From a bacterium (lineage in GTDB: Bacteria > SAR324 > JACQKK01): a stretch of DNA of 64,000 nucleotides. Each line of letters opens with the position of its first letter. Position 1 is the stretch's first letter. The stretch spans positions 1,316,080-1,380,079 of the forward strand of contig OZ252237.1 of assembly GCA_965249525.1 (NCBI GenBank). The letters run 5' to 3'. The notes under the pieces are model-generated. The model did no database searches. It saw nothing but the letters and a program-made list of their open reading frames with translations, and was not told the DNA's origin. A program made the translations under genes and the position numbers. Positions 5,354 to 49,206 of this stretch are shown in pieces.

Positions 5354-5968
5354 CTATGGCAGCCAGGGAGTTTCCTGCCTTCTTTTTACTTCGTAGGCTT
5401 TAATGTCAGGAAGGTGTCGCAAGGTGCGGGTGATATCATCCAGCCCTTGCAGGAGGGTCTGTTTGTCTTCTGCTTCCAGTTGGAAGGAGAAGTTTTCTCC
5501 ATCAGCAGTGGTGATGCGATCTGCTGGCAGGTGGATTTCTATGCGCTGGCGGGGATGCTGCTGGATGTATTGGAGCAGAATTTGTTGATCTGGGGAAGAA
5601 ATCTTGGCAGGCAGGAGACCGTTTTTGATAGCGTTGCTGTAGAAGATATCCGCAAAGCTGGTAGCAAGTACGGCGCGAATGCCGTAATCCATCAGGGACC
5701 ACACAGCGTGTTCGCGGCTGGAACCACAGCCGAAGTTGCGCCCAGCAAGCAAGATGCCTGCCTTGCGAAATGCTGGTTGGTTGAGGATGAAATCGGGGTT
5801 GGGCTGGTCTTTGCTGCCATTAAGATAGCGCCAGTCATTAAACAGATGCTGTCCGAATCCCTGGCGTCCGATAGCTTTTAGAAATTGCTTGGGGATGATC
5901 ACGTCGGTATTAATATCGTCGTGATCAAGATAAGCAGCAATAGCTGTATGTGAGATAAAAGGCTTCAT
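5354..5968 (-). CDS. leuD: 3-isopropylmalate dehydratase small subunit
   Basis: DINTDVIIPKQFLK and NFGCGSSREHA motifs; follows leuC. Confidence 0.97.
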   Translation of the reverse strand: MKPFISHTAIAAYLDHDDINTDVIIPKQFLKAIGRQGFGQHLFNDWRYLNGSKDQPNPDFILNQPAFRKAGILLAGRNFGCGSSREHAVWSLMDYGIRAVLATSFADIFYSNAIKNGLLPAKISSPDQQILLQYIQQHPRQRIEIHLPADRITTADGENFSFQLEAEDKQTLLQGLDDITRTLRHLPDIKAYEVKRRQETPWLP

Positions 5969-6063
5969 GGCTGTTACTGTATGGCTGTTACTGTATGGCT
6001 GTTACTGTATGGCTGTTACTGTATGGCTGTTACTGTATGGCTGTTACTGTATGGCTGTTACTG
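5967..6063. repeat. 14-bp tandem repeat x7 (ATGGCTGTTACTGT) filling the leuC-leuD gap
   Basis: Direct reading; the end copy overlaps the leuD start codon. Confidence 0.97.
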
Positions 6064-18422: not shown

Positions 18423-18891
18423 CTGGTGTAAGGGGTTTGCTGGAAGCGGCTGGTAGGGGGCTTGCCTGGTAAGGGGTTTGCCTGGTAAGGGCTGGTAAGG
18501 GGTTTGCTGGAAGCGGCTGGTAGGGGGCTTGCCTGGTAAGGGGTTTGCCTGGTAAGGGGTTTGCCTGGTAAGGGCTGGTAAGGGGTTTGCTGGAAGCGGC
18601 TGGTAGGGGGCTTGCCTGGTAAGGGGTTTGCCTGGTAAGGGGTTTGCCTGGTAAGGGCTGGTAAGGGGTTTGCTGGAAGCGGCTGGTAGGGGGGCTTGCA
18701 TGGTAAAGGCTGGTAAGGGGTTTGCTGGAAGCGGCTGGTAGGGGGGCTTGCATGGTAAAGGCTGGTAAGGGGTTTGCTGGAAGCGGCTGGTAGGGGGGCT
18801 TGCATGGTAAAGGCTGGTAAGGGGTTTGCTGGAAGCGGCTGGTAGGGGGGCTTGCCTGGTAAAGGCTGGCAAGGGCTGGTAAGGGGTTTGC
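18423..18891. repeat. Composite G-rich satellite (~470 bp) built from CTGG-initiated 10-17-bp modules
   Basis: 7 copies of CTGGAAGCGG spaced 67, 83, 83, 52, 52, 52 bp apart, interleaved with CTGGTAAGGGGTTTG(C) and CTGGTAGGGGGCTTGC. Confidence 0.97.
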
Positions 18892-37929: not shown

Positions 37930-38066
37930 TGCTTGTATCCGCAGTGCTTTATGCTTGTTATCCGCAGTGCCTTATGCTTGTTATCCGCAGTGCCTTATGC
38001 TTGTTATCCGCAGTGCCTTATGCTTGTTATCCGCAGTGCCTTATGCTTGTTATCCGCAGTGCTTTA
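37930..38066. repeat. 23-bp tandem repeat x6 (TGCTTGTTATCCGCAGTGCCTTA)
   Basis: Direct reading; first copy has a 1-nt deletion. Confidence 0.97.
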
Positions 38067-38160
38067 TGAAGTGCCTTATAAGATGCTCTCTTGCTTTATC
38101 TCATATTTGCAGCACCAATGCACCCTGCGCTTGCACGAAATAAGCACCCACCCCCATCCT

Positions 38161-42023: not shown

Positions 42024-43529
42024 ATGTCCAAATCTACCGCCAAATCCACCGCCAAATCTACCGCCAGATCCACCGCCAAGAAGCCTTCAGCAGCCCCCCA
42101 GATCTTGGCTGTGCTGCCCTCTGTGCGAGAAGCCGAGGACTATTTGCGCTCCTGCGGTTGGCTAGAAGCTGAAGCCAGCAGGCATCCACCAGGCTGGAAC
42201 AAGCAGGTGCGCAGCCAGTTGCAGCAGGCCTTGGAACACCTGCGAACCGCCTTGCTGCAGCAAGCCCCAGGGGCGCCCGCTTCACGTCAGCAGGCCTTGG
42301 AACAGCTGGAGACATTGATACGACCGCCCCCAGTAGGCTTGCGTGCGGTGGTGAATGCCAGCGGGGTTATCTTGCATTCCAATTTGGGTCGCTCGCCCTT
42401 GGGCAGGGAGCTGTTTGAACGGACAGCAGAACGCCTGTGGGACTGTGTCAATTTGGAATATGACTTGTCACAGGGGAAACGAGGGCGTCGTGCTGAGGGG
42501 GTGGAGCATATACTGCGACAATTGTCTGGTGCGGAAGATGGGTTGGTGGTCAACAACAATGCAGCTGCCATGCTGCTGATGCTGGCTGCCTTGGCTTCCG
42601 CAGCCGAGGTGGTGGTATCGCGCGGGGAACTGGTGGAAATTGGCGGGGGATTTCGGGTGCCAGAGATTATGCAGCAGTCTGGAGTAAAGTTGGTAGAGGT
42701 GGGCAGCACCAATTGCACCCGACTGTCAGATTACGCCCAGGCTATTACTCCAAACACCTGTGCCTTGCTGAAGGTGCATCGTTCCAACTTCACCATGCAG
42801 GGATTTGTGGAAGAAGCCCCCTTGGAGGCATTGGCGCAGCTGGCGCATCAACGGAGTATTGCCCTGTGGTGTGATCAAGGCAGTGCCAGTTTTTATCGTT
42901 TTTACCAGCCTGGGCTGCAAGCCCTGCCAACCCCAGCAGAACTGCTGCAGGCAGGCGTGGGACTGTTGGCATTCAGTGCAGACAAACTGCTGGGGTCGGT
43001 GCAAGCCGGTATTGTACTGGGGGATGCCAAAAGCATCCAGCGCATGCGCACACATCCCCTGTTTCGCAGCCTGCGCTGCGACCAAGTACGCCTGGCACTC
43101 TTGGAACAAACCCTGCTGGACTGCCTCCATCCCCAAACCTTCCCGCAGCACAATCTCACCACCGCACTGCTGGAACGCTCCCCAGACGACCTGAAACCCT
43201 TAGCCGAAAAGCTGCTGGCTTTGCTGCATCCACTAAGCACAAAAGGCTTAAAAACCCAGCTGCTCCCCAGCGAAAGCCTCATCGGTGCTGGCGCCGCCCC
43301 CGAAATACACCTGCCCAGTTTCTCCGTAGCCCTAACCATCCCCCACATCTCAGCCTCCACCCTGCTCCAACGACTGCGCACCTGCCCCACTCCCATCCTG
43401 GCACGCATACACCAAGACCAAGTATGTCTAGATCTGCGCACCCTGTTTCCCCATCAGCTGGACACCATCGCCCAAGCCCTCGCCCAGATCCTTGATGCAG
43501 CGCCCAAGCCCCCCCATTCCTCCCCATAA
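42024..43529 (+). CDS. selA: L-seryl-tRNA(Sec) selenium transferase
   Basis: VNASGVILHSNLGRSP, VNNNAAA, SRGELVEIGGGFR and FSADKLLG motifs; N-terminal (KSTA)n repeat. Confidence 0.95.
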   Translation: MSKSTAKSTAKSTARSTAKKPSAAPQILAVLPSVREAEDYLRSCGWLEAEASRHPPGWNKQVRSQLQQALEHLRTALLQQAPGAPASRQQALEQLETLIRPPPVGLRAVVNASGVILHSNLGRSPLGRELFERTAERLWDCVNLEYDLSQGKRGRRAEGVEHILRQLSGAEDGLVVNNNAAAMLLMLAALASAAEVVVSRGELVEIGGGFRVPEIMQQSGVKLVEVGSTNCTRLSDYAQAITPNTCALLKVHRSNFTMQGFVEEAPLEALAQLAHQRSIALWCDQGSASFYRFYQPGLQALPTPAELLQAGVGLLAFSADKLLGSVQAGIVLGDAKSIQRMRTHPLFRSLRCDQVRLALLEQTLLDCLHPQTFPQHNLTTALLERSPDDLKPLAEKLLALLHPLSTKGLKTQLLPSESLIGAGAAPEIHLPSFSVALTIPHISASTLLQRLRTCPTPILARIHQDQVCLDLRTLFPHQLDTIAQALAQILDAAPKPPHSSP

Positions 43530-43574: not shown

Positions 43575-44537
43575 TCAAGACAACTCTTCCAATAACTTTA
43601 AATAACCCTCCCAACGCCAGACCTCCAATTCATGGCGTTCCACTGCTTCCCGCACCGCACAGCGAGGCTCTTCACGATGCAAACAATTGTGAAATCCACA
43701 CCTCCCCTCCCAAGCCGATATCCCCGGATAACACCCTCCCAAGCTCCCAGGGCTGATCCCTTGAGGACCAAACTCTCGCAAACCAGGCGAATCAATCAAC
43801 CACCCACCCTTGGGCAGCCGCAGCAACTGTGACGCACTGGTGGTATGACGACCTCTCTCACTCCTCCCCCCCACACCTGAGGACACCTCCCCCACCCGAC
43901 GCATGCCTCCACACAAGGTATTCACCAAGCTGGTCTTGCCCACCCCAGAATGTCCCACCAACAAGCTCATCCCCTCTGCCAGTAACCTTTCCAACTCCCC
44001 CAGGGTCTCCCTCTGGGTAGTCACCACCCCCAATACCTTTAAACCTAATTTCCTATAAGGCTCGCTCAATGCTTCCAACACCCCCCCAGTCACCAAATCC
44101 AACTTGGTAACACACAATACCGCATCCAAACCAGCATGTTCGGCTGCCACCAATAATCTGTCTACCAACCCCCTGCGAAATGACGGTGACACGGCTGCTG
44201 CCGTTATCAGTACACGGCTTATATTTGCTGCCAATAACTGTGCCCCACCTCTTCCCCCACGTTTACGATCCGCCCCCCGACGATACAACCTACTCGTCCT
44301 CGGCAACTGTTCTCGCACCAAACCTTTCTTCCCCTCCCAGCGTTCAAAACGTACCCTGTCTCCCACCACTAAAGGCATCCCCCTTCGCAACTCCCCCCCC
44401 AAGCGACAGGTGTACTCGGCATCCTTCCATAATACCTTGCACAATTCACCATAACTGGCTGCCACCCATCCTTCTTCCCATTCCCCTTTCTCAACACCCC
44501 CTAACTTTTGCCCCTTCTTGTTACTTGTATTCGCCAT
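43575..44537 (-). CDS. rsgA: Ribosome small subunit-dependent GTPase A
   Basis: VVGDRV, TKLD, GHSGVGKTSL, GRHTT, IDSPG and C.F.NC.H..EP.C motifs. Confidence 0.95.
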   Translation of the reverse strand: MANTSNKKGQKLGGVEKGEWEEGWVAASYGELCKVLWKDAEYTCRLGGELRRGMPLVVGDRVRFERWEGKKGLVREQLPRTSRLYRRGADRKRGGRGGAQLLAANISRVLITAAAVSPSFRRGLVDRLLVAAEHAGLDAVLCVTKLDLVTGGVLEALSEPYRKLGLKVLGVVTTQRETLGELERLLAEGMSLLVGHSGVGKTSLVNTLCGGMRRVGEVSSGVGGRSERGRHTTSASQLLRLPKGGWLIDSPGLREFGPQGISPGSLGGCYPGISAWEGRCGFHNCLHREEPRCAVREAVERHELEVWRWEGYLKLLEELS

Positions 44538-44599
44538 GCTACACAGCCCACCTGTTATTTTTCTTCCCCTCTCCCTTCATCATCACCTCCCAGGTTTTC

Positions 44600-45000
44600 T
44601 AACACAAAACCTGTGTATATTACTAGATAAAAGATAACAAATAAAATCCAAATTATTAGAAAAGTTTTTTATTAAATGCTCGCATAAAAATAAGAAAAAT
44701 CCTATGCATACTTATCCAAGAAATCCATACTGTTGACTTTGACTGCATCCATATCTGGTGTGTATTTTTTCACTATTACAAGCATAGGTTCTTTGGTTTT
44801 TCTTTTTATATCAACCATTTAGAAAACATCCCTCTCTGGGCAAGCCTCCGTGGCTGGCCCTGCTGCCAAGCTGCAAAAAGGTGACCTGGGTAAAGAAACA
44901 AAAATCCTTATGAGAACAAACAACAAGGGAATTATGCAAAAAGTTTTTACAAATTCTTCTTGAAAATCTAAAATGTTTTATGACAAACTACATTCTAGTT
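44600..45000. other. AT-rich non-coding tract
   Basis: Long A/T runs, no ORF; lies between divergent rsgA and the 45453 ORF. Confidence 0.7.
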
Positions 45001-45052: not shown

Positions 45053-45224
45053 GCATGCAATGCCGAGCATGAGAAGCCGAGCATGAAATGTCGTGCATGA
45101 GATGCCGAGCATGAAATGTCGTGCATGAGAAGCCGAGCATGAAATGTCGTGCATGAGATGCCGAGCATGAAATGTCGTGCATGAAATGTCGTGCATGAGA
45201 TGCCGAGCATGAAATGTCGTGCAT
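45053..45224. repeat. 14-bp tandem array x12 mostly alternating GCATGAAATGTCGT and GCATGAGAWGCCGA
   Basis: Direct reading. Confidence 0.97.
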
Positions 45225-45452: not shown

Positions 45453-47132
45453 ATGTTTGTATGTGAAGGTGTCGCCAAAACACAGATCGGTTTGAAGCGT
45501 ATCCGTTTTAAGCATCGTTTATGGGATGCCCTGGCCTGCTGGCGTGAGTTGTATGAAGAAAACCAAGGAGATACCGCCGCTATGGAAGTGGTATTAAACA
45601 CCCAGCTAGAGATGCATGTGGCGCGTGAAGCCATGGAGAAATCACTGTTGAGCGAGCAGATGAGTCGTATGTTGCGGGTGCGCGATATTCACCGTTTTGT
45701 GGCCTTGCCGACTTGCTTGGCTGAGGTAAAAACCCAAATATTGGAACACATCCTGTTGGAGCATTCTTTGCTCACACGCTGGGCAGCAGTGCGTGAGGCC
45801 TTGCTGCAACATGCCAACACCTTGTGCAATTTACAACCCATGCCGCCCCCAGCCCGCATAGAAGCCTTGAAACGCCAATTTTCAGACCCTACTTCTGCAC
45901 TAGGACAACTTCTGGTAGCCACAGCCCTGTTTAATTTTGACCAAGACGAAGAACGCCCGCCGCTCAACTGGATGGTGCACTTTAAGAGCCGAGCATTTCC
46001 TGAACATTGTTGGCGCAGCAGCTTGGGGGAGAACAACAGCTGGCGTCCTGCCAATCCTTTATGCCGTTGGGAATACCTGGCCACTGATTTGGTGCATTCC
46101 CTGGTACGCCAAGGCTCTCAGTGGTCACAGCGCAGGCAAAAGCTCTCCACCACCAAAAAAGATACCCTATCCAACTCCTTCCCATCCGCCACCCCCCAAG
46201 AACAAAGCGCACTGCGCAAAATCTACTGCCTTTTTCAACCGCTGACCAAGGAGGGTCAGCGGCCTCCTCACCAAGCAGCCAGCAATAACCCCCAGCAGCC
46301 CACCCCTGCCGCCAGCCCCCCATCACCCCCGCAGCAAATAGAACTCCTGCCACTCACAGCCCAAACCTTCCTGCCTCAATTGCATCGCTTTGCACATCGT
46401 CGCTTAGGTCCGCAAACACCCCGTCTGTTTGCCGTATTGATGGAACAACTGGCATGTGCCGTCCCCGCAGAACCCCTCACCCTGTCTTTGACAGATCTCA
46501 GCCTCCGCAGCGCAGCCCAAAGTGACAGCCCCCAGCGACGCACCTCCCGCAGACGCAGCCTGGGACGCATGCTTCAATGGCTACAACAAGAAGTCTGCAT
46601 GCACCATGTGTTGGAATCTCCCAGCAGCGGAGAACAAACCTTTAGCAGAAGCGGACTCCTGCATGTCTTGCGTTGGGAAGCCCCCCACGACTCTCCCCAA
46701 CAAGATACCTACCAAGTCAAAATTTTGCTAGACAGCGGATTCTTCCACCCCCAAGGTGATTGCCTGGCATCCCATTGGCAGCATCTACCCCCTGCCCTAT
46801 TTGTCCCAGATCCCCAAGAACACCCCTATGCCCCAGCACTATTTGTCTTCATCCGAAGATACTGGAACACCTACCAACACCACAGCTGGGAACTCAGCGT
46901 AGAAAGCCTGCTGCAATCTTGCGGAATTTGGCACAGCCCCTCAGGACGCTACCAGGCACTAGCAACACTGAAAAGAGACCTGGACTTCTTACAACAACAA
47001 GGCTGGCTGCAACAATGGAACATCACCCAAGACCACAGACGTGACTGCCTGCGACAAAACTGCAGCCTAAAAGCGCCCAAACCCCCCTCTCAACTGTCCA
47101 CCAAAACCAAACTTGCTACCACCAGCAGCTAA
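45453..47132 (+). CDS. Hypothetical protein; C-terminal half resembles tandem winged-helix Rep/TrfA-type initiators
   Basis: 559-aa ORF; RLFAVLMEQL...LTLSLTDL...LGRMLQWL and LSVESLLQSCGI...LKRDLDFLQQQGWL patterns judged by eye only. Confidence 0.6.
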   Translation: MFVCEGVAKTQIGLKRIRFKHRLWDALACWRELYEENQGDTAAMEVVLNTQLEMHVAREAMEKSLLSEQMSRMLRVRDIHRFVALPTCLAEVKTQILEHILLEHSLLTRWAAVREALLQHANTLCNLQPMPPPARIEALKRQFSDPTSALGQLLVATALFNFDQDEERPPLNWMVHFKSRAFPEHCWRSSLGENNSWRPANPLCRWEYLATDLVHSLVRQGSQWSQRRQKLSTTKKDTLSNSFPSATPQEQSALRKIYCLFQPLTKEGQRPPHQAASNNPQQPTPAASPPSPPQQIELLPLTAQTFLPQLHRFAHRRLGPQTPRLFAVLMEQLACAVPAEPLTLSLTDLSLRSAAQSDSPQRRTSRRRSLGRMLQWLQQEVCMHHVLESPSSGEQTFSRSGLLHVLRWEAPHDSPQQDTYQVKILLDSGFFHPQGDCLASHWQHLPPALFVPDPQEHPYAPALFVFIRRYWNTYQHHSWELSVESLLQSCGIWHSPSGRYQALATLKRDLDFLQQQGWLQQWNITQDHRRDCLRQNCSLKAPKPPSQLSTKTKLATTSS

Positions 47133-47176
47133 CCATAAACGGAGAAAAACACATACCCATAGAAAAGACAGGCATT

Positions 47177-47319
47177 CAATAAAGGAGAAAAGGGGTGGCT
47201 CTTGCTTTGTGCGACCAACAAAACCCGGCGCATCATGGATGAATTGCGCTTCTTCCCCAAGGAGGGGTACGGGTTAAAACAAGTCGACAACGGGGGTCAC
47301 CCCCCATCTTCCTTTATTG
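47177..47319 (+). ncRNA. Putative structured non-coding RNA (long rod with A/C-rich bubble and branched tip), family unknown
   Basis: Nested pairings 47177-86/47310-19, 47192-204/47291-303 (4 G-U), 47207-15/47283-90, 47222-27/47270-75, plus two apical hairpins; G-U wobbles give + strand. Confidence 0.6.
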
Positions 47320-47326
47320 GCAGCCA

Positions 47327-47745
47327 TGCCTATGCAATGCCTGTTCAATGCCTGTTCAATGCCTATGCAATGCCTATGCAATTGTATCCCGCAAGGGCAC
47401 TCCTGAGTGGCAAAAAAACCATCGCAGAAAAACCATCGCAGAAAAACCATCGCAGAAAAACCATCGCAAAAAAACCATCGCAAAAAAACCATCGCAGAAA
47501 CCAAATGCAAGCCTGAGACGCAAAAACCCCTGCATTGCAGCGCACATCCCAGGTGTGCAGAAAGCAGGTGTGCAGAAAGCAGGTGTGCAGAAAGCAGTGG
47601 TTGAAATGCAGAGGATGCTTTCTGCCTTGCTGCTTGTGTGAGGGGTATCACTTGACTCAACCCCGCCCCAGCTTTTAGGGTTACCAAGAGTGTTTGGGCT
47701 GGCATCTGCTGGCTGGCATCTGCTGGCTGGCATCTGCTGGCTGGC
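47327..47745. repeat. Cluster of short tandem repeats (11-bp TGCCTATGCAA/TGCCTGTTCAA x5; 14-bp AAAAACCATCGCAG x6; 15-bp CAGGTGTGCAGAAAG x3; 14-bp GGCTGGCATCTGCT x3)
   Basis: Direct reading. Confidence 0.9.
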
Positions 47746-47823
47746 GAATGTTGGCTTCTAAGTACCCTCACCAGCAGCACTCCCGCTTGAATCACCCTTA
47801 AAAATCTCCCCCAGGAAGCGATT

Positions 47824-49206
47824 TTGATAGATCACACCAACGCACCCATGCGAGCCGTATTGTTGGGAATACAATTGCCCCTGGTATCGGCTGCACAGCT
47901 GCAGGAATCGCTGGATGAGTTGAGGCAATTGTTGGTGGGATTGGAATGCTGCTTGGTGGGACAAATCCACCAACAGCGCCCTGTCAAACACCCCACCAAT
48001 GTATTTGGCGAGGGCAAGCTGCAAGAAATCAAGCATTTGGTGCATGCCAAGGGTGCGGATTTAGCAGTGTTTGACGGCAGCCTTTCGCCGGCACAGGGAC
48101 GCAAGCTGGAAAGTGTGCTGGAGGTGATGGTGGCTGACCGCACCCAGGTGATTTTAGATATTTTCAGCAAAAATGCCCGCACCCGTGAAGCCCATAAACA
48201 AGTAGAATTGGCTAGGCTGGAATATACACTGCCGCGCTTGGTAGGTATGTGGGCGCACCTGGACCGAGAACGGGGAGGCATCGCAGGAGGCAGGGGTGCA
48301 GGGGAAAAACAAATTGATCTAGACCGCACCCTGTTGCGCAGCCGCATTGCGCGCTTACGAAAAGAACTGCACAAGCTGGACACCCGCCGCCGCACCCATG
48401 TAAAAAAACGCCGCAGCTGCTTAAAAGTCTCCCTAGTGGGCTATACCAATGCAGGAAAATCCACCCTGATGAACCGCTTGACCAATGCCCACCTCCTCAC
48501 ACAAGACCGCTTGTTCGCCACTTTGGACTCCACCACCCGCCAACTGGACGCCCAAAACCCTCCGCCCATTCTCATCTCTGACACCGTCGGTTTTATCCGC
48601 AATCTGCCTCACCAGCTGGTGGCATCCTTCCGTTCCACCTTGCAGGTGGTGATAGATGCCGATTTGCTGCTGCATGTGGTGGACATCAGCCATCCCAACT
48701 TCCAAGAACAAATGGCAGTAACCAAAGACACCCTCAAAGAGATTGGCGCAGATACCATCCCCATGCTGGTGGTATTCAACAAAACCGATAAAACCTCCAA
48801 CACGCAAAAGCTGCTTGCCAAGCAAATGGTTCCCCAGGCTGTTTTCACCAGCGCCATCAACCAAGACACCGACATCCGAAAACGGGACATCCGAAAACAG
48901 GACCTCAGAAAACGCATCTCTGATTTCTTCAGCCAAAGCATGCGCACCGCAAAACTCACCCTCCCCTGCACCCAAGAAGACTTGTACCTGCTCCACCGCT
49001 GGAGTCACGTACAACACATCCATCAGGTTGCCCACCACAACCAAGAGGTGGTTTTTAGCTGCACCCCAGACAACCTGGCACGTATTCTTGCGCATTTTGG
49101 ACCCGTTGAATTGCTTCCCAACCATGCCGCAGCCCACACCCCCCGTCACACCACAACCAATCCCCCCAAGGCAGCACAGCTGGAAGAACGCCAATACGCG
49201 CCCTAG
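47824..49206 (+). CDS. hflX: GTPase HflX
   Basis: DRTQVILDIF, QVELARLEY.LPRL, GYTNAGKSTL, LFATLD, DTVGF and FNKTD motifs. Confidence 0.96.
   Translation: MIDHTNAPMRAVLLGIQLPLVSAAQLQESLDELRQLLVGLECCLVGQIHQQRPVKHPTNVFGEGKLQEIKHLVHAKGADLAVFDGSLSPAQGRKLESVLEVMVADRTQVILDIFSKNARTREAHKQVELARLEYTLPRLVGMWAHLDRERGGIAGGRGAGEKQIDLDRTLLRSRIARLRKELHKLDTRRRTHVKKRRSCLKVSLVGYTNAGKSTLMNRLTNAHLLTQDRLFATLDSTTRQLDAQNPPPILISDTVGFIRNLPHQLVASFRSTLQVVIDADLLLHVVDISHPNFQEQMAVTKDTLKEIGADTIPMLVVFNKTDKTSNTQKLLAKQMVPQAVFTSAINQDTDIRKRDIRKQDLRKRISDFFSQSMRTAKLTLPCTQEDLYLLHRWSHVQHIHQVAHHNQEVVFSCTPDNLARILAHFGPVELLPNHAAAHTPRHTTTNPPKAAQLEERQYAP

Follow-up and report, generated by a model that had tools for sequence, protein, structure and literature searches.

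The locus

We analysed a 64,000-nucleotide (nt) stretch, hereafter the window, from a bacterium of the SAR324 group (GTDB lineage Bacteria; SAR324; JACQKK01), spanning positions 1,316,080 to 1,380,079 on the forward strand of contig OZ252237.1 in GenBank assembly GCA_965249525.1. A preliminary description made from the letters alone had drawn attention to a highly structured RNA-like element located directly behind a gene that it called Rep-like. This gene, P0001 (window positions 45453-47132, + strand), encodes a conserved 'hypothetical' protein of 559 amino acids. Its stop codon occupies 47130-47132, the first helix of the element begins 45 nt beyond it, as originally described, and the element lies in the predicted 3' untranslated region (UTR) of the gene. 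Sequence comparison across relatives identifies the element as an expanded, genus-specific form of an approximately 85-nt RNA motif. The motif presents two GGA-bearing hairpins on a common basal stem, and we tentatively propose that it may act as a binding module for CsrA, an RNA-binding global regulator.

Fold of the element

The core of the element (47177-47320, + strand) is predicted by RNAfold to reach -64.5 kcal/mol (z -6.09), and the longer segment 47168-47344 to reach -77.2 kcal/mol (z -5.63); in neither case is any of 200 dinucleotide shuffles equally stable. The preliminary description had proposed such a comparison with shuffled sequence. The minus strand folds more weakly, with z-scores of -4.42 for the core and -4.29 for the longer segment. 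The minimum-energy structure comprises a long stem, a three-way junction and two hairpins, and reproduces the helices of the preliminary description, all of which we located.

All parts of the structure are on the + strand. At its base, an extension helix recognized both by sequence match and by RNAfold pairs CAATAAAGGA (47177-47186) with TCCTTTATTG (47310-47319). This helix is confined to the expanded form found in the window's genus, and at the corresponding position the second genome of the genus has a comparable helix with another sequence. Helix P1, which is 13 base pairs (bp) long and rich in G-U pairs, is formed between GGGGTGGCTCTTG (GGGGUGGCUCUUG; 47192-47204) and CGGGGGTCACCCC (47291-47303). 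Above it lie a bulged 8-bp helix, P1a, formed by TTGT(G)CGAC (47207-47215) and GTCGACAA (47283-47290), an internal loop of 6 x 7 nt (47216-47221 on the 5' side and 47276-47282 on the 3' side), and the 6-bp helix P1b, AACCCG/CGGGTT (47222-47227 with 47270-47275), which closes the three-way junction. P1a and P1b are both additions relative to the short form of the motif described below.

Two hairpins emerge from the junction. P2 (47228-47249) consists of GCGCA/UGCGC and UCA/UGA closing a UGGA loop, with the GGA at 47237-47239. P3 (47255-47267) reads CCC(C)-AAGGAG-GGG, with the GGA at 47261-47263, and is the counterpart of the short-form hairpin CUC-ANGGAN-GAG.

The preliminary description had also offered an optional outermost helix, ACAGGCATT/AATGCCTGT (47168-47176 with 47336-47344). 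The pairing exists, but its membership of the element is doubtful because its 3' arm coincides with one repeat unit of an 11-bp tandem array (47326-47382), and because a related strain carries an uncompensated 47172 G>A change and has one 11-nt unit fewer. The helix is therefore probably fortuitous and outside the element. An open reading frame that overlaps the element (47202-47516) was considered as a coding sequence and rejected, since the alignment between the two genomes of the genus has gaps of 2 and 5 nt and the frame crosses tandem repeats.

A conserved RNA motif in the window's family

We compared the window's genome (G000) with a second genome of the same genus (G001), with other members of the window's family (f1), and with genomes of the sister family (f2) and five further families (f3-f7). 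The element is single-copy in the 1.72-Mb, one-contig genome of the window and is therefore not a dispersed repeat. A DNA similarity search with the element against the genomes of 40 relatives returned chance-level matches only, and homologues were therefore located through the neighbouring gene. Orthologues of P0001 are present in all 18 other f1 genomes, and the element was found just 3' of the gene in 18 of the 19 f1 genomes examined, including that of the window. G001 has an expanded form. The 16 other genomes have a short form of about 85 nt, directly downstream of the gene and on its strand, in which a P1 basal stem of at least 17 bp surrounds the two hairpins P2 and P3; every one of these sequences individually folds in this way.

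A covariance model (R1) built from an alignment of the 16 short forms made with MAFFT (alignment A3) has exactly one match in each of the 16 seed genomes and finds nothing elsewhere in them. It has no match in the 45 f2 genomes or in 24 genomes of f3-f7. We also retrieved 15 metagenome loci that carry the gene. Four of these contigs extend no further than the gene itself. In each of the 11 that continue far enough, R1 detects the element behind the gene on the + strand. The seed of the model does not include five of these 11 sequences, which have other stem sequences with an identical fold and identical loops. Weak second matches to R1 occur some 70-150 nt past the true element at L095/L096:3365-3451 (21.5 bits) and L091:2898-2984 (17.1 bits). 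They are probably chance similarities to an arm of P1, and the former probably overlaps the start of an SDR gene, as judged from the position of that gene in the matching genome sequence.

R1 finds no significant match in the window's own genome. The homology of the expanded forms to the short form is instead based on position, on the words of P1 (GGGUGG ... CACYCC), on the shared junction and on compensatory changes between G000 and G001. In P2, for example, G001 has GCACA/UGUGC where the window has GCGCA/UGCGC, a compensatory change of G-C to A-U, and its loop reads AGGA. P1 of the window corresponds by homology to the basal stem that covaries in the short forms (consensus GGGUGG...CCACYC).

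Covariation, strand and transcript

Among the 21 base pairs of P1 and P3 in alignment A3, 90.7% of cells are paired, compared with 76.8% in shuffles, and 14 of the 21 pairs change on both sides; none of 500 shuffles reaches the observed values. Controls in which the pairing partners were slid along the alignment gave at most 53% pairing. When 21 sequences are aligned to the model the covariation figures are similar, this alignment being biased towards the structure by construction. The collection of homologues and analysis of covariation suggested in the preliminary description thus support a conserved structure.

G-U or U-G combinations occupy 41 cells, as against 10 for A-C or C-A, and R1 scores at the same place are higher on the + strand than on the minus strand (for example, 70.4 versus 25.8 bits). 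The structure is therefore selected on the sense strand of the gene, which bears out the earlier claim of strand specificity made from the G-U pairs of the window alone.

Strain-level variation is consistent with the fold. In assembled contigs of a closely related strain, 47212 C>T is accompanied by a change of its partner, 47286 G>A, converting a C-G to a U-A pair in P1a in a compensatory manner. The variants 47203 U>C (U-G to C-G in P1) and 47287 A>G each interchange G-U and Watson-Crick pairing. A further variant, 47258 C>A, disrupts the pair that closes P3.

In one relative (G012) the basal stem begins so early that the stop codon ends 10 nt after its start, and in another (G003) the distance is 16 nt. 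This overlap with the coding sequence leaves no space for a promoter of the element's own, which indicates that the element is within the transcript of the gene. One alternative is that the element serves the upstream gene solely as a terminator or as a stabiliser of its 3' end, with loops that have no partner. A long G+C-rich stem does end the gene, and by eye a run of at least three U follows the basal stem in about 10 of the 16 short forms, with eight U in one metagenome locus (L093). However, no U-tract follows the window form, in agreement with the preliminary description. Termination requires no three-way junction, and the loop nucleotides CUC-A-GGA-GAG are invariant over 21 sequences while the stem varies. 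We therefore consider an exclusively structural role at the 3' end unlikely.

Comparison with known RNA families

The motif has no counterpart in Rfam 15, in keeping with the novelty claimed for it. No family matches anywhere in the window at gathering thresholds, and at E <= 10 the region 46900-47900 yields only a chance microRNA match outside the element, with no hit to 6S RNA (RF00013), to the TwoAYGGAY motif (RF01731) or to any Csr/Rsm family. The corresponding loci of 17 relatives gave chance matches and an unrelated thiamine pyrophosphate (TPP) riboswitch, with no RF01731 match at E <= 10. The riboswitch scores 60.6 bits, above its cut-off, and is located about 1 kb from the element in genome G002 (L072:290-420, minus strand). 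A scan of the window for tRNA and transfer-messenger RNA found none, as the preliminary description had stated.

That description had entertained a divergent 6S RNA, and the element is indeed of comparable length and forms a long irregular hairpin. 6S RNA has a large central bubble between two long stems and an unbranched apex. By contrast, the internal loop of the element measures only 6 x 7 nt and its apex is a three-way junction. In addition, a genuine 6S RNA is encoded elsewhere in the genome (RF00013, 69.9 bits against a cut-off of 46.4; G000:C1:1155914-1156122). We consequently regard a 6S identity as having almost no probability.

The closest architectural parallel is TwoAYGGAY. A recent preprint describes this motif as a pair of successive hairpins that share a basal stem and have AYGGAY loops, with lineage-specific stem extension and flanking repeats, and with a median of 11-23 copies per genome, arranged as doublets, in Pseudomonas (bioRxiv 10.64898/2026.09.22.753630). 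In the original paper it is classed as probably an RNA and not as cis-regulatory (PMC2864571), and the portions of the two sources available to us assign it no function (bioRxiv 10.64898/2026.09.22.753630; PMC2864571). The element likewise has a basal stem carrying two sequential hairpins with GGA-centred loops, and in the window it has a lengthened stem and nearby repeats. The P2 loop of the window even reads AUGGAU, although P2 varies elsewhere. These similarities would be explained if the element were a lineage-specific relative of TwoAYGGAY bound by a factor other than CsrA. Against this, the second loop, in P3, is ANGGAN with A preferred at the second position rather than AYGGAY, and only 2 of 23 P3 loops are strictly AYGGAY. 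Whereas TwoAYGGAY is multicopy and occurs in Pseudomonadota and Bacillota, the element is single-copy, fixed 3' of one gene and found in a family of the SAR324 group, and RF01731 matches neither the 1-kb region of the window nor the loci of the 17 relatives. We therefore class the element as a new RNA family of the same general kind as TwoAYGGAY and not as a member of it. Kinship with TwoAYGGAY through a different binding factor is not a likely explanation, and kinship as such would be compatible with CsrA binding.

The upstream gene

No Pfam or NCBIfam model matches P0001, every relative in the databases is annotated as 'hypothetical', and in a profile search no PDB sequence scored below E 0.5. 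An AlphaFold2 model built on eight orthologues has a mean predicted local distance difference test (pLDDT) score of 70, with a confident C-terminal half. The best PDB matches identified by Foldseek are domains 2-3 of RctB, Pi and RepE54, and residues 300-546 align in VIA-align with Z 10.7 to RctB domains 2-3, about 10 to RepE54 and 9.3 to Pi (overall range 9.0-10.7). Matches in a viral library are also annotated as replication initiators. The modelled C-terminal half thus has the double winged-helix (WH1-WH2) fold of iteron-type replication initiators, with about 190-223 residues aligned to RctB domains 2-3, RepE, Pi and RepA. In contrast to these proteins, P0001 lacks a sequence-level match to a Rep family and has an additional conserved N-terminal domain.

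This N-terminal region contains a strongly conserved but poorly modelled block with an invariant PxxxxCRWEYL at approximately residues 199-209, and it gives only weak matches (0.76) to unnamed clusters in the ESM Atlas. Proteins distantly related to the C-terminal half have a C-terminal Xre-type helix-turn-helix.

P0001 does not behave like a replicon initiator. Unlike the iteron-type proteins, it is chromosomal and single-copy, it lies in a conserved neighbourhood (rsgA, the gene itself, in some cases an SDR gene, and hflX) away from the origin, and a tblastn search against plasmids found no match. The label 'Rep-like' therefore holds at the level of the fold and fails with regard to sequence membership and initiator behaviour.

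We considered whether the RNA might be a partner or autoregulatory site of this protein, such that the protein would bind its own message at the 3' end, or would itself be guided or regulated by the RNA. The linkage between the two is strict, in that the RNA is always directly 3' of the gene and on its strand, and both are absent from f2. Winged-helix domains can also bind RNA hairpins, as exemplified by SelB. The protein family is, however, older and wider than the RNA. It is present in 22 of 24 f3-f7 genomes, which places it in four other families of the class (and in none of the 45 f2 genomes), whereas neither the element nor a comparable hairpin pair was seen in any of 15 downstream stretches from f3-f7. 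Furthermore, one f1 genome (G008) has the gene without the RNA, and the loops match the binding site of another, well-defined protein. The partnership raised in the preliminary description is thus weakened, and we judge it improbable.

Repeats, neighbouring genes and replication

Tandem arrays of 11-15-bp units that resemble iterons flank the element on both sides. Together with the Rep-fold neighbour and with a folding z-score of -4.88 for the + strand under DNA parameters, they could suggest that the element is a single-stranded DNA signal for priming or replication used with the Rep-like protein, as the preliminary description had proposed. An iteron origin was nevertheless rejected, because such arrays occur throughout the window, are not conserved beside the gene in relatives, and coincide with no origin in GC skew. 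By this measure the origin lies near 0 and the terminus near 0.91 Mb, the element's locus (1.36 Mb) shows no shift, and dnaA is located at 24.5 kb, so that the locus is away from both origin and terminus. Upstream of the gene, arrays are found only in the two reduced genomes, G000 and G001, and not in most relatives. Selection for G-U pairs and the ANGGAN loops suit an RNA better than a DNA signal, as does the overlap of the element with the end of the coding sequence in two relatives. The priming signal therefore receives no positive support, and we think it very improbable.

Repeats of this kind are a general feature of the window, whose intergenic regions are packed with perfect or nearly perfect tandem arrays of 11-24-bp units, the unit differing from array to array (56 TRF rows in 64 kb; for example, 5967-6063, 18450-18875, 37930-38068, 45053-45224 and 47326-47756). 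Large tandem arrays also surround the orthologous gene in G001, and relatives with larger genomes mostly lack them. The gap of about 900 nt between rsgA and P0001 (44538-45452) is A+T-rich (GC 0.35 at 44500-44999) and contains three AGATAAA repeats and a 12-copy array of 14-bp units (28-bp super-unit; 45053-45224); it looks origin-like and has no support from GC skew. Elsewhere, a 12-bp repeat of 4.3 copies (42024-42079) occupies the first 56 nt of the predicted selA open reading frame, the true start of which may be further downstream.

Downstream, the order P0001, element, SDR, hflX on one strand is common in f1, and in the window hflX is the next gene. This arrangement would fit a role in controlling the SDR gene and hflX, either as a 5' leader or as an intercistronic element. 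In G006 and G015, however, the next gene is convergent (encoding an FGGY kinase and coaBC, respectively), which argues that the element is not a leader of the downstream gene. In the window about 500 nt and four tandem arrays separate the element from hflX, and the GGA loops overlap no ribosome-binding site. A leader function consequently appears quite improbable. The HflX protein of the window had no match in G001 at E <= 1e-20 in a search that did not use Pfam families.

GGA loops and CsrA

The two GGA loops, which the preliminary description did not mention, are the best predictor of function. P3 reads CUC-ANGGAN-GAG in all 21 short forms and its loop is ANGGAN in 23 of 23 sequences: AAGGAN in 17, AYGGAN in 5 and, as noted above, strictly AYGGAY in 2. 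The expanded forms follow the same pattern, with CCC-AAGGAG-GGG in the window and the loop AAGGAU in G001. By eye, P2 displays GGA in or at its loop in all 18 f1 sequences inspected, on stems that vary widely (UCAU/AUGA, CCUCCC/GGGAGG, CAC/GUG and others). As a measure of background, 13,244 nt of unrelated downstream DNA contain three ANGGAN hairpins with 3-bp stems.

These features resemble the recognition site of CsrA and its relative RsmE, which a review describes as a hairpin with an ANGGAN hexaloop, with a SELEX (in-vitro selection) consensus for CsrA of RUACARGGAUGU and with one CsrA dimer able to bridge two sites 10-63 nt apart, the optimum being >18 nt (PMC7652899). P3 (UCA-A-GGA-U-GA) agrees position by position with this recognition hairpin. 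The distance from GGA to GGA is 13-31 nt (median 19) in all 23 sequences and thus falls within the bridging distance.

A CsrA protein that could bind such sites is encoded in the genome. csrA occurs in 63 of the order's 64 genomes and is intact in the window's genome, where its 76-residue product (PF02599, 89 bits) retains the RNA-binding residues L4 and R44. fliW, the gene for the protein antagonist FliW, adjoins csrA in 58 of the 64 genomes. It was not found in G000 or G001, which have reduced genomes of 1.72 and 1.6 Mb in one contig each and which both keep csrA. Flagellin 5' leaders from five relatives offer a comparison: by eye, 7 of 11 have ACAAGGAGGU at the ribosome-binding site, and 5 of 11 have a second NNGGA site 20-35 nt upstream. 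This is the classic two-site layout of a CsrA target, and its words are shared with the loops of the element. We found no literature linking SAR324 and CsrA.

Compared with known ligands of this protein family, the element has in common with the decoy RNAs CsrB, CsrC and RsmX/Y/Z and with the hag (flagellin) leader the GGA in short hairpin loops, the ANGGAN loop, the flanking CA...G and the bridging distance. It differs from the decoys in having just two sites, held inside one long stem, and from stand-alone small RNA genes and the 5' leaders of Csr targets in its location in a predicted 3' UTR. The lineage also differs from those Csr/Rsm systems in possessing the FliW-partnered type of CsrA.

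Proposed function

From these sequence features we tentatively favour a reading in which the element is a dual-site CsrA-binding module in the 3' UTR of the mRNA of the Rep-fold gene, a proposal that may well be correct without our being confident of it. The element would be transcribed as the 3' end of this mRNA. Its basal stem would close the three-way junction and hold two hairpins that each show a GGA, about 19-24 nt apart, such that one CsrA dimer could clamp both loops. There are two ways in which this might have a regulatory effect. The RNA could titrate CsrA as a small decoy derived from the 3' UTR, or the fate of the transcript could be made dependent on CsrA through its stability, the formation of its 3' end or read-through into the SDR gene and hflX. 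The basal stem would double as a terminator-like hairpin that protects the 3' end. In the window's genus, with its reduced genomes in which a FliW gene was not found, the stem has been lengthened by the additional helices.

Several observations weigh against this proposal. The phyletic pattern tracks the gene and not CsrA, since csrA is present in 44 of 45 f2 genomes and the gene and RNA are present in none of them. No element is detectable within 1.4 kb downstream of the divergent orthologue in G008. With filters off, R1 scores only 5.9 bits for the window core and 7.3 bits for the G001 element, neither of which is significant. The loop of P2 varies, and its GGA is predicted to be partly paired in some sequences. 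None of the Csr/Rsm families of Rfam matched the window region or the loci of the 17 relatives. Finally, an RNA that takes up a single dimer would be a weak sponge in comparison with RNAs of the CsrB and RsmZ types.

Implications

The element founds a structured-RNA family that is absent from Rfam 15 and for which covariation, strand assignment and a precise prediction of the protein partner are available. RNA antagonists of CsrA are known mainly from Gammaproteobacteria, and lineages with FliW are thought to use a protein to control CsrA, according to the review cited above (PMC7652899). If the proposed interaction is true, a dual-GGA RNA in a FliW-type lineage would widen the range of RNA-based control of CsrA. 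The element persists, in enlarged form, in genomes where FliW was not found. A more far-reaching version of the proposal, which we regard as doubtful, is that a FliW-type CsrA outside the Gammaproteobacteria would have in this element its first dedicated RNA ligand, a one-dimer clamp in the 3' UTR of a domesticated Rep-fold gene, and that in the two genomes where FliW was not found the enlarged RNA would be the remaining antagonist or sensor of CsrA. The proposed CsrA-binding role also gives a lead on the function of the TwoAYGGAY motif, which is similar in architecture. Independently of the RNA, the locus draws attention to an uncharacterised family of chromosomal proteins, predicted to have a replication-initiator fold, that has been kept across much of the SAR324 group.

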